From Escherichia phage 232Ecol030PP, in the sequence record PP355090.1: DNA of 64,000 nt. The stretch is one strand, 5' to 3'. The translations under genes and the position numbers were made by a program. The notes under the pieces are model-generated. The model was given only the letters and a program-made list of their open reading frames with translations. It ran no database searches and was not told where the DNA came from. Shown here piece after piece: positions 5,535 through 45,220 of this stretch; positions within the stretch are counted from its first letter, which is position 1; each line of letters starts with the position of its first letter.

Positions 5535-5610
5535 TGGTCGAGGCAGTAGGGATCGAACCTACGACCCAGGACTTAGAAGGTCCTTGCTCTTCCTTCTGAG
5601 CTATGCCTCG
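5535..5610 (-). tRNA. tRNA-Arg (anticodon UCU)
   Basis: manual cloverleaf: acceptor CGAGGCA/TGCCTCG, anticodon loop CTTCTAA, T-loop TTCGATC, CCA encoded. Confidence 0.85.
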
Positions 5611-5614
5611 GATT

Positions 5615-5689
5615 TGGCGGACGTGATAGGATTCGAACCTATAACCAATCGCTTAACAGGCGATCGCTCTGCCATTGAGCTACACATCC
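5615..5689 (-). tRNA. tRNA-Asn (anticodon GUU)
   Basis: manual cloverleaf: acceptor GGATGTG/CACGTCC, anticodon stem ATCGC/GCGAT, loop CTGTTAA, T-arm ATAGG-TTCGAAT-CCTAT, CCA encoded. Confidence 0.75.
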
Positions 5690-5693
5690 AAAT

Positions 5694-5780
5694 TGGTGGG
5701 GAGTGATGGAGTCGAACCACCCGAGTCGCAATGACAATGGATTTACAGTCCACACCGCTACCTCTACGGGATAACTCCCC
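5694..5780 (-). tRNA. tRNA-Tyr (anticodon GUA), long variable arm
   Basis: acceptor GGGGAGT/ACTCCCC, anticodon loop CTGTAAA, long variable arm TGTCATTGCGACTCGGG, T-loop TTCGACT; architecture like bacterial tRNA-Tyr. Confidence 0.7.
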
Positions 5781-5789
5781 AAATTAATT

Positions 5790-5864
5790 TGGTGGCCCTG
5801 GGTGGAATTGAACCACCATCTGGCGATTATGAGTCGCTTGCTTGAACCTTCCAGCTACAGGGCC
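5790..5864 (-). tRNA. tRNA with CAU anticodon (Ile by analogy with T4, or Met)
   Basis: acceptor GGCCCTG/CAGGGCC, anticodon loop CTCATAA, T-arm GGTGG-TTCAATT-CCACC. Confidence 0.75.
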
Positions 5865-5865
5865 T

Positions 5866-5941
5866 TGGTGCTGATTGACGGAATCGAACCGCCGACCTTC
5901 TCATTACAAGTGAGTTGCTCTACCTACTGAGCTAAATCAGC
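5866..5941 (-). tRNA. tRNA-Thr (anticodon UGU)
   Basis: acceptor GCTGATT/AATCAGC, anticodon loop CTTGTAA, T-loop TTCGATT. Confidence 0.85.
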
Positions 5942-5946
5942 AAAAC

Positions 5947-6036
5947 TGGCGGAGGCGATAGGATTTGAACCTATGAGTCGCCGGAGCGACTGCCGGTTTT
6001 CAAGACCGGTGCATTAAACCACTCTGCCACGCCTCC
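5947..6036 (-). tRNA. tRNA-Ser (anticodon UGA), long variable arm
   Basis: GGAGGCG...CTTGAAA...long variable arm...ATAGG-TTCAAAT-CCTAT-CGCCTCC-G-CCA. Confidence 0.85.
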
Positions 6037-6039
6037 AGT

Positions 6040-6112
6040 CTCCGTGGCAGGATTTGAACCTACGACATTCTGCTCCCAAAGCAGACGCTCTACCAAACTG
6101 AGCTACACGGAG
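6040..6112 (-). tRNA. tRNA-Pro (anticodon UGG), CCA not encoded
   Basis: acceptor CTCCGTG/CACGGAG, anticodon loop TTTGGGA, T-loop TTCAAAT; 3' end followed by CT then tRNA-Ser. Confidence 0.85.
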
Positions 6113-6122
6113 TAAATTAAAT

Positions 6123-6196
<74 letters not shown>

Positions 6197-6201
6197 AAAT
6201 T

Positions 6202-6288
6202 TGGTGCGAGAAGTGGGACTCGAACCCACAAGGAAATCATTCCGCAGCATTTTAAGTGCTGTGCCTTTACCAATTTGGCCATTCTCGC
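6202..6288 (-). tRNA. tRNA-Leu (anticodon UAA), long variable arm
   Basis: acceptor GCGAGAA/TTCTCGC, anticodon loop CTTAAAA, T-loop TTCGAGT. Confidence 0.85.
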
Positions 6289-6289
6289 G

Positions 6290-6362
6290 CTGGGAATAAA
6301 GGACTCGAACCTTTGCATCCTGGAATCAAAATCCAGTGCCTTACCAACTTGGCTAATTCCCA
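6290..6362 (-). tRNA. tRNA-Gln (anticodon UUG), CCA not encoded
   Basis: acceptor TGGGAAT/ATTCCCA, anticodon loop TTTTGAT, T-loop TTCGAGT. Confidence 0.85.
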
Positions 6363-43016: not shown

Positions 43017-43083
43017 GTTATCGAGTTGATGCCATTATATACATCATTTTCTGAGTATGTTTTGTGTGCTTTCAAAATGAAGA

Positions 43084-43099
43084 AAGGGGCCGAAGCCCC
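43084..43099 (-). terminator. Terminator hairpin after hoc
   Basis: minus strand AGGGGC-TTCG-GCCCCT followed by TTCTTCATTTTG. Confidence 0.6.
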
Positions 43100-43111
43100 T
43101 TATGATTATGA

Positions 43112-44530
43112 TTATGGATAGGTATAGATGATACCAGTTTCTAAAGCAGTTTTATGAATGATGTATCCATTACGCGATTCTTGAACATCAACTTCTGGAT
43201 AGTCTTTCATCATCTTCTGAAGAGTGTAACGATGTAGGTAATATTTACTATCTGGGTCGTCAGTTTTCCAATCTTTACCTTCTTCGGTCATTTTTTGGAT
43301 TTCATCCATAACCCACCAACCGCACCAGATATAAGCTGAAGTACGATGTGGAAGAGGATGAACATAAGGTAGTTCACCTTCTGGTTCTGGAGCAACTTTA
43401 TCAGTTACCTGAACTTGACCTTCTGCTGTAATAGTTTTGCTATCGTAATCAGTTGCAGTAACGACAGCAGTAACTTCAATAGTTTGACTTCCAACAGATG
43501 AGGTATCGACAGTATATACGTTAGTTGACCCTTCTACAGGAGAAGAATCTTTCTTCCATGAGTAAGTAATTTGTGCTTCTTCTGGAGCACCCGTAACATT
43601 AGCCGTAAATGTAGCCGAAGCATCTTGCTGAACATTAATAGAAGGAGGAGTCAATGTAACCTGTGGATTCATTGTCTTCTTATTAACTGTCAATGATACT
43701 TCATTAGAAGTAACTTCCTTTTCATTGTAATTTTCAGCAGTTACTTGGGCTACGCATTTAATTCTTTTTACTCCACTTGTAGTTGGAGTATAGCTAAATG
43801 TAGAGTTAGTTTCTCCACCAACTTGTGAATCATCTACATACCACTGATACGTAGCAGACGCTCCATCAGGTTGAGAAGCTAAGGCAGCAGTAAATTGAAC
43901 TGGGGTTCCGATTACTCCCGCTGGAGGACTATCAGGAGTTACTGCCAAAGTAGTTGTCTGCTCCTTTTTATTAACAGTCAGTGATACTTCATTCGAAGTA
44001 ACTTCCTTTGTATCATAATCTGTCGCGGTTACTTGAGCTACGCACTTAATTGTTTTAACTCCGCTTGCGTCAGGAGTGTAATTGAATGTAGTGCTAGTTG
44101 CTTCGCCCACAGGAGAACCGTCAACGTACCATTGATACGTAGCGTTTGCACCTGATGGCTGTGAAGCTAAGGCAGCGGTAAATTCAATTGGAGTTCCAAT
44201 CACTCCAGCATCAGGGCTACCAGGAGTTACTGCCAAAGTAGTTGTTTGTGTCTTATTTTGAACTGTGATAGTTGTACTAATTTCAGCTGTTTCAGGTTCA
44301 GATTCTGCAACTTGATTGGTTGCAACTACTTTAATAGTCTTTTGACCGGCAGGTCCTTTTAGTACATAACTAAAAGTTGCTGACGTTTCTTCCTGTGGAG
44401 CGTCGTCTACAGTCCAAGCATATGTAATAGGTCCATCTCCAGTTTGACCACTGGGTGCAGCAGTAAACTGCTGAGTCTGATCTATAACTCCAGTAGGTGT
44501 TTTAGGAGTTATATCAACTGTAAAAGCCAT
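43112..44530 (-). CDS. hoc: Highly immunogenic outer capsid protein Hoc, with an extra Ig-like domain
   Basis: 472 aa; four tandem Ig-like modules plus C-terminal domain; modules 2 and 3 are near-duplicates. Confidence 0.9.
   Translation of the reverse strand: MAFTVDITPKTPTGVIDQTQQFTAAPSGQTGDGPITYAWTVDDAPQEETSATFSYVLKGPAGQKTIKVVATNQVAESEPETAEISTTITVQNKTQTTTLAVTPGSPDAGVIGTPIEFTAALASQPSGANATYQWYVDGSPVGEATSTTFNYTPDASGVKTIKCVAQVTATDYDTKEVTSNEVSLTVNKKEQTTTLAVTPDSPPAGVIGTPVQFTAALASQPDGASATYQWYVDDSQVGGETNSTFSYTPTTSGVKRIKCVAQVTAENYNEKEVTSNEVSLTVNKKTMNPQVTLTPPSINVQQDASATFTANVTGAPEEAQITYSWKKDSSPVEGSTNVYTVDTSSVGSQTIEVTAVVTATDYDSKTITAEGQVQVTDKVAPEPEGELPYVHPLPHRTSAYIWCGWWVMDEIQKMTEEGKDWKTDDPDSKYYLHRYTLQKMMKDYPEVDVQESRNGYIIHKTALETGIIYTYP
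43661..44248. repeat. Intragenic tandem duplication (~294 bp x 2, roughly 80% identical) encoding two Ig-like domains of Hoc
   Basis: protein segments TTTLAVTPGSPDAGVIGTPIEF...SLTVNKKEQ and TTTLAVTPDSPPAGVIGTPVQF...SLTVNKKTM; matching DNA blocks visible by eye. Confidence 0.8.
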
Positions 44531-44539
44531 AAGTTATCC

Positions 44540-45220
44540 TTATTTTAATGTTACGAAAGAAGAATTACGTGTTTCACGAATTAGAACTGATCCGTCACGA
44601 TTAATGTAGTAAATTAAGCTAAATAAAGTTTGGTGTGCTGACGCATGTTCAAAACTAGTTGGGTGAGATTTCCAATCTGGGGTTTCAGCAATCCATTGAT
44701 AAATCCACCAAGGAACAGTGCAGAATCCTGGATTTTTTCCAATCAGCTGAAGATTCGGACTAAAGTTTTCCGGAAGAGTAAATACAGACGGCTTTTCAGA
44801 TTCAATAATCTCAGCTACAGCCTGTTCGAATTTTTCTTCAACAAAAGGAGTATCTTCAATTAAAACAGTGGTATTTTCAGGAATTTTATCCGTTTCTACT
44901 ACTTCAATTTTAATGTCAGATTTAACCGGAGAATCAATCAGAAGTGCTGCCTCTGGATTGACTTCTTCATCGTCATATTTTAATCCGTCTGCGGCATCAG
45001 CAGCATCAATTAAGTCTTTAATAGATAACCCATCAGTCTCTGGCATAGGTTCACTAGCGAGCTTCTGGAGAGCTTCTTCAATATCATTAACGATATTATC
45101 AAAAGATTTATTCTTTTTGACCTTTATACCAAACTGTTCAGCATATTCAGCTAATTTAGCTTTAGCTTCTTTATTATCATCAAGAGCCTTCAGCTCTGCA
45201 ATATAATCTTTATCTATCAT
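44540..45220 (-). CDS. inh: Inhibitor of prohead protease
   Basis: 226 aa; position between hoc and uvsW. Confidence 0.85.
   Translation of the reverse strand: MIDKDYIAELKALDDNKEAKAKLAEYAEQFGIKVKKNKSFDNIVNDIEEALQKLASEPMPETDGLSIKDLIDAADAADGLKYDDEEVNPEAALLIDSPVKSDIKIEVVETDKIPENTTVLIEDTPFVEEKFEQAVAEIIESEKPSVFTLPENFSPNLQLIGKNPGFCTVPWWIYQWIAETPDWKSHPTSFEHASAHQTLFSLIYYINRDGSVLIRETRNSSFVTLK

Follow-up and report, generated by a model that had tools for sequence, protein, structure and literature searches.

Hoc of phage T4 (highly immunogenic outer capsid protein; 376 aa in both PDB 5vf3_Z and X14869; see also PDB 8t1x and the model in PMC10385173) is a 180-Å fiber whose C-terminal, capsid-binding domain anchors it at the center of gp23* hexamers (PMC10385173). 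An acidic pI of about 4-5 is a Hoc trait, and among 650 Hoc homologs the strings of Ig-like domains vary in number, reaching up to 10 in phage Muldoon (PMC10385173); a Hoc without domain 3 has been described as well (PMC11853027). The more distant Hoc proteins in the literature follow the same principle, that of a conserved capsid anchor joined to a variable number of Ig-like domains. Our literature search for an explicit account of a Tequatrovirus Hoc with four Ig domains, a repeat of 288 bp or a duplication of domain 2 returned general statements and the Klebsiella PMBT63 case, and no more than that. PMC10580926 and PMC13600099 are silent on the number of Hoc domains, and we found no description of a domain-2 module polymorphism of one to four copies within Tequatrovirus, nor of a tandem module with variable copy number within a genus. 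A variable Ig-domain number in Hoc is already published, and the polymorphism within Tequatrovirus amounts to a small gap in the published descriptions rather than to a new type of system.

Here we consider the hoc locus of Escherichia phage 232Ecol030PP (sequence record PP355090.1) in a stretch of 64,000 nt, hereafter the window, whose relevant features are collected in Table 1. A phmmer search against PDB sequences matched the 472-aa ORF at 43112-44530 (minus strand) to T4 Hoc 5vf3_Z with an E-value of 1e-223, the alignment falling in two stretches: residues 1-124 of the query pair with T4 1-124, and residues 191-472 with T4 95-376. The gene is therefore hoc, and its product exceeds T4 Hoc by exactly 96 residues; the original prediction, made from the letters alone, had given 472 aa here against about 376 aa in T4, and both lengths are confirmed (5vf3_Z, X14869). 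What this protein has in addition to T4 Hoc is a domain-2-type module (aa 95-190) between T4 domains 1 and 2. The hoc of record OZ035729.1 is 99.9% identical to that of the window, and annotation as Hoc is found in many relatives. Like T4 Hoc, the protein is acidic, with a computed pI of 4.44 for the whole chain, 4.38 for module copy 1 and 4.61 for copy 2. We take 43112-44530 to be an ordinary, intact gene for the Hoc head-decoration fiber, belonging to a widespread two-module allele class of Tequatrovirus, with a probability of about 0.88.

Gene position is also shared with T4 hoc. The order inh-hoc-24.3-24.2 is that of the annotated PP01, phiD1 and RB32 loci, and both order and spacing match the annotated loci of these three phages and of T4, with hoc lying between inh and 24.3/24.2, near uvsW. 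On the 3′ side of hoc, window ORFs encode homologs of T4 24.3, 24.2 and RNA ligase 2. On the 5′ side, an ORF of 226 aa equivalent to inh stands immediately upstream of hoc in T4 X14869, and beyond inh the window carries a 503-aa ORF of UvsW size on the opposite strand. We consider hoc to be probably co-transcribed with inh, since the inh stop lies 9 nt ahead of the hoc ATG and no exact late-promoter motif precedes hoc: exact TATAAATA is absent between inh and hoc and directly upstream of either gene on their strand, and upstream of inh only one-mismatch versions occur. At the position equivalent to that of the terminator-like hairpin of Table 1, T4 X14869 and D5505 have an annotated putative terminator.

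Across the whole window we counted 26 occurrences of the T4 late-promoter core TATAAATA where 10 are expected (sd 3.4), an excess that fits a region of late structural genes. An Rfam scan of the window returned no RNA elements other than tRNAs, which form a cluster of 10 genes on the minus strand at 5535-6362 (Arg, Asn, Tyr, Met/Ile(CAT), Thr, Ser, Pro, Gly, Leu and Gln); the tRNA-Tyr gene is barely above the Rfam threshold (30.2 bits vs 29). T4 has eight tRNA genes, and Asn and Tyr would be extra in the window.

Table 1. Features of the hoc locus, with positions in the window
Feature	Position	Strand	Remarks
hoc CDS	43112..44530	minus	472 codons plus stop (stop 43112-43114); intact ORF
Ig-like domain 1, aa 1-94	44249..44530	minus	aligns with T4 Hoc 1-94; AlphaFold2 beta-sandwich aa 4-91, block pLDDT 81-93
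Domain-2-type module copy 1, aa 95-190, type A, extra relative to T4	43961..44248	minus	tandem repeat
Domain-2-type module copy 2, aa 191-286, counterpart of T4 Hoc domain 2	43673..43960	minus	aligns with T4 Hoc 95-190
Last Ig-like domain, aa 287-376, counterpart of T4 Hoc domain 3	43403..43672	minus	aligns with T4 Hoc 191-280
C-terminal capsid-binding domain, aa 377-472	43115..43402	minus	aligns with T4 Hoc 281-376
inh (226 aa), upstream neighbor	44540..45220	minus	from the ORF list; same arrangement annotated inh in PP01, RB32 and others
Terminator-like hairpin AAGGGGCTTCGGCCCCTT with T-rich tail	43074..43101	minus	11 nt past the hoc stop; consensus scan

The domain layout is seen consistently by several approaches. 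Pfam scores PKD at 44.9 bits against a cut-off of 23.5, with the best stretch (aa 195-267) inside module copy 2; Ig_3 and Ig_2 also pass their cut-offs, and the last Ig domain is covered by Ig_3 and I-set at aa 289-373. A module HMM detects four Ig segments, and an AlphaFold2 model built on 33 homologs (mean pLDDT 84) presents four beta-sandwiches at about aa 4-91, 99-187, 194-283 and 290-376, most 10-residue blocks having pLDDT near or over 90, followed by a helix-rich C-terminal domain predicted with low confidence (pLDDT 40-67). The best Foldseek matches of this model in the PDB are four-Ig fragments of Dscam1, Sidekick-2 and ICAM-5. The idea that an intragenic tandem repeat adds a fourth Ig-like domain is thus borne out, with a repeat of 288 nt in frame and agreement of module HMM, AlphaFold2 and Foldseek.

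The capsid-binding domain differs from T4 281-376 in a single residue (T397 here, S301 in T4), and nearly all of its columns are invariant across the 33 homologs. From this near-identity of the anchor we infer that Hoc would sit here as in T4, one monomer per gp23* hexamer center and dispensable for infection (PMC10385173), and the fiber would be a T4-type fiber longer by one Ig domain. Residue differences between the two modules fall mostly in predicted loops, with 15 of the 21 outside predicted strands (Fisher p 0.014). The SLT motif is present in both copies, at 183-185 and 279-281; in domain 2 of PNJ-9 Hoc, SLT (S183, L184, T185) is a reported MUC2 contact (PMC11853027).

At the nucleotide level, Tandem Repeats Finder reports a period of 288 nt with 2.0 copies and 78% matches (score 707) at 43676-44245, and a repeat finder places two copies of 288 nt at 43676-43963 and 43964-44251 with 76% identity; in codon register the units are the two in-frame modules of Table 1. 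Copy 1 and copy 2 share 220/288 nt (76%) and 75/96 residues (78%). The tandem repeat is real and far beyond chance, because shuffled copies have a mean identity of 26% (sd 2.5%) and reach 36% at most in 10,000 shuffles. That the two modules are about 96 aa long and related in their DNA therefore holds as originally proposed, whereas their supposed near-identity at the protein level does not survive the 78% found.

Nei-Gojobori estimates between the copies (dN 0.15, dS 0.97, dN/dS about 0.15) place synonymous sites close to saturation and point to purifying selection on both copies. For comparison, the non-repeat part of hoc (domain 1, last Ig domain and anchor) has a dS of 0.22-0.30 against T4, PP01, Pu-Krd-SF4, UGKSEcP1 and slur03. 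Judged by synonymous sites, the copies are several times more diverged than the hoc alleles of different Tequatrovirus species and the duplication is old, because dS is 0.97 between copies and 0.22-0.30 outside the repeat; dS is an imperfect clock given gene conversion between modules, and the bias would be towards a younger age, not an older one.

The architecture itself is common. Searching 5.8 billion protein clusters, we found that the best 120 Hoc homolog clusters fall into discrete classes by length, with 376 aa in 76 clusters, 472 aa in 29 and 568 aa in 7, besides near variants; by the module HMM these three length classes have three, four and five Ig segments, with one, two and three high-scoring domain-2-type modules, respectively. 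In a phage genome collection, hoc matches were found in 678 records, the best of them Tequatrovirus LF73P1 (99.9%). Two evenly spaced samples down this ranking gave a hoc of about 1419 nt in 20/50 and 16-17/44 full-length records, the rest having about 1131 nt, so that about 37/94 evenly sampled full-length records, or about 39%, carry two modules; the percentage is estimated from database records, in two samples that partly overlap, and is not a frequency in natural populations. Single-module phages include T4, T2, T6, RB14, RB18, RB32 and RB59.

Hoc proteins of the same 472-aa length and four-Ig architecture as that of the window are found in LF73P1, the Yersinia phages PYps14T/15T, vB_EcoM_G4498, PP01, AR1, ime09, phiD1 and HP3, and the two-module phages further include PST and pSs-1. 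Nucleotide identity to the window hoc within this class goes from 99.9% (LF73P1) down to about 89% (AR1), and its members differ from the window only by point differences and by other mosaics of module segments, copy 2 of HP3 being of type C. The 568-aa Hoc of UGKSEcP1, YUEEL01 and EC101 and the 664-aa Hoc of slur03/08/14 have the same module family, flanking domains and 96-aa period, but one or two further modules, giving five or six Ig-like domains. About 15 records have a three-module hoc at full length and at least 87% identity, and a further group stands at about 83% identity, slur03 with its four modules among them. The slur03 protein (NC_042129.1, 10-2004 of the retrieved locus; 664 aa, four domain-2-type modules, six Ig-like domains) is the longest Tequatrovirus Hoc in this analysis and serves as our reference for module types A-D-B-C. 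Evidently, the window hoc is a common allele, sequenced many times and already annotated as Hoc, and we infer that its two-module state was inherited, not created, by this phage.

In several records the two-module hoc is split into two annotated CDSs, namely in MZ501066.1 (FriedrichMiescher), MK327940.1 (G29), PP418986.1 (UPWr_E2), MZ291552.2 (UFV09), MZ234018.1 and OR887633.1. Some of these split genes span 1418 or 1420 nt. The hoc frame is shifted in these records, which could reflect sequencing errors or genuine pseudogenes, hoc being dispensable.

Relationships among modules were examined by average-linkage clustering of 170 modules across phages. First modules gather in one cluster in 30/31 of the two-module genes and in 9/9 of the three-module genes, while the second modules of two-module genes lie in other clusters in 28/31 cases and single-module genes occur in every group. 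Nucleotide identity of window copy 1 is 98% with the lone D5505 module, 91% with the first copy in phiD1, UGKSEcP1, YUEEL01 and slur03, and 77% with the T4 module; that of window copy 2 is 95% with copy 2 of PP01, 92% with module 2 of slur03 and 91% with the T4 module. Among the 40 multi-copy representatives, none has modules more than 85% identical within one protein, and recent duplication is for this reason absent throughout the sample.

Modules are also mosaic. Site-by-site mismatch profiles against the four slur03 modules reveal patchworks in T4, C2-3, teqhad, RB32 and copy 2 of HP3; the single module of C2-3, for example, is of type A at roughly nt 30-85, of type B at nt 100-210 and of type D at its 3′ end. 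We do not claim a strict module order, as classing by the nearest slur03 type gave out-of-order architectures (e.g., 'B-D' in 9 proteins); either the order is not strictly conserved or mosaicism blurs it. The junction 'NKKE|QTTT' was likewise dropped as a marker of single origin, most two-module genes having 'NKKT|QTTT'.

The comparison with D5505 is particularly instructive. Its domain 1 is 99.3% identical to that of the window and the 846 nt past its module are 100% identical, while in the module itself the first 268 nt are those of window copy 1, apart from one private SNP, and the sequence from nt 273 onwards is that of copy 2. The D5505 hoc is, in other words, the window hoc minus one in-register unit of 288 nt, with the crossover at module nt 269-272, within the repeat where its 3′ end is conserved. 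This is most simply read as a contraction, in one step, in the D5505 lineage; an insertion here from a two-module donor is less simple, and it too presupposes an existing two-module gene. Downstream of hoc, the D5505 flank has 31% identity to the window in an ungapped comparison, and an indel after the hoc stop is suspected because the D5505 terminator sits further from the stop. The metagenomic protein P0106 in turn matches, at 99.2% identity, the window protein without its copy 1. Whole-unit alleles with one, two, three and four modules, a crossover within the repeat (D5505) and mosaic units are all found, as in a tandem module array of variable copy number that homologous recombination maintains.

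Could domain 2 have been duplicated in place recently, in the lineage of this phage, as the original prediction held? The repeat is adjacent, unit-length and exactly in frame, and T4 lacks the second module, all of which such an event would produce. Yet 24% of nucleotides differ between the copies, whose synonymous sites are anything but near-identical at a dS of 0.97; the allele is not confined to the closest relatives, being present in about 39% of related records, including phages with a hoc flank dS of ~0.27; and copy 1 and copy 2 are each closer to modules of other phages than to each other, first modules clustering across phages. We regard a recent origin as very unlikely on these grounds. 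The same prediction had named a four-domain Hoc with divergent modules, if universal among related phages, as what would count against it: such a Hoc is present in many relatives and, although it is not universal, this counts in substance against the prediction. A segment falsely duplicated by an assembly or sequencing artifact deserves even less credence. Repeats are a classic source of misassembly and several database records have hoc split into two CDSs, but 68/288 differing positions cannot come from collapse or expansion by an assembler, the reading frame is intact, and a hoc of 1419 nt is present in many independently sequenced genomes.

Somewhat less remote, though still improbable, is a scenario in which the modules are allelic variants of a single-module hoc, diverged beforehand and then joined, possibly recently, by unequal recombination in co-infection. 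Single-module genes of nearly pure copy-1 type (D5505) and of pure copy-2 type (P0106) do exist, modules are clearly shuffled between genomes, and T4 recombination at high multiplicity is documented (PMC9271167). Out-of-register pairing of single-module genes would, however, have only weak microhomology available at the boundary between domains 1 and 2, and the D5505 module has the 3′ end of copy 2 followed by identical downstream sequence, as contraction of a two-module gene would leave. First-position modules, moreover, group together in 39/40 multi-copy genes. Even if such a joining took place, this phage inherited the resulting allele, which is widespread by now.

Returning to the old duplication, we conclude that domain 2 was duplicated in frame long ago, yielding paralogous 96-aa modules that diverged to a dS of about 1 under purifying selection. 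Homologous recombination in register, between modules of one genome or of genomes in co-infection, could then change both copy number and content, leaving behind mosaic modules and clean insertions or deletions of 288 nt. The extra domain would lengthen the fiber by about one Ig domain, which we estimate at ~4 nm over the roughly 18 nm of the T4 fiber, and would offer a second domain-2-type surface with different loops that may tune adhesion to glycans or cell surfaces. More broadly, and at slightly less than even odds, we speculate that the Tequatrovirus domain-2 module is a recombination-driven cassette array in which co-infecting phages shuffle, lose and regain ancient paralogs of the module, present in one to four copies, tuning fiber length and loop repertoire and perhaps adherence to glycans or mucus.

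Exchange may extend beyond the modules. In RB69 (AY303349.1), HEMP5, DalCa, UGJNEcP1 and CAU_ECP01, only the last ~275 nt of hoc (43112-43387) match the window, at 92-98.6%, and megablast returned no match to the Ig-coding part of the gene in these five phages. Since RB69 and the others match over the capsid-binding domain alone, this suggests that phage genera exchange the anchor domain independently of the Ig string. Two records named as T4 derivatives differ as well, LR597660.1 (T4_ev151) having a three-module hoc of 568 aa and LR597657.1 (T4_ev240) a single-module one of ~1131 nt; a hoc swapped by recombination between phages would be consistent with this difference.

For annotation, it follows that a 472-aa Hoc is not to be flagged as unusual and that the 376 aa of T4 are not the genus norm. 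As an unremarkable representative of a common class of Hoc alleles, the window hoc has little significance for this window in particular. Natural alleles with one to four modules on near-identical backgrounds, as in D5505 and this phage, are ready-made pairs for testing the effects of fiber length and module content on adherence to mucus or cell surfaces.
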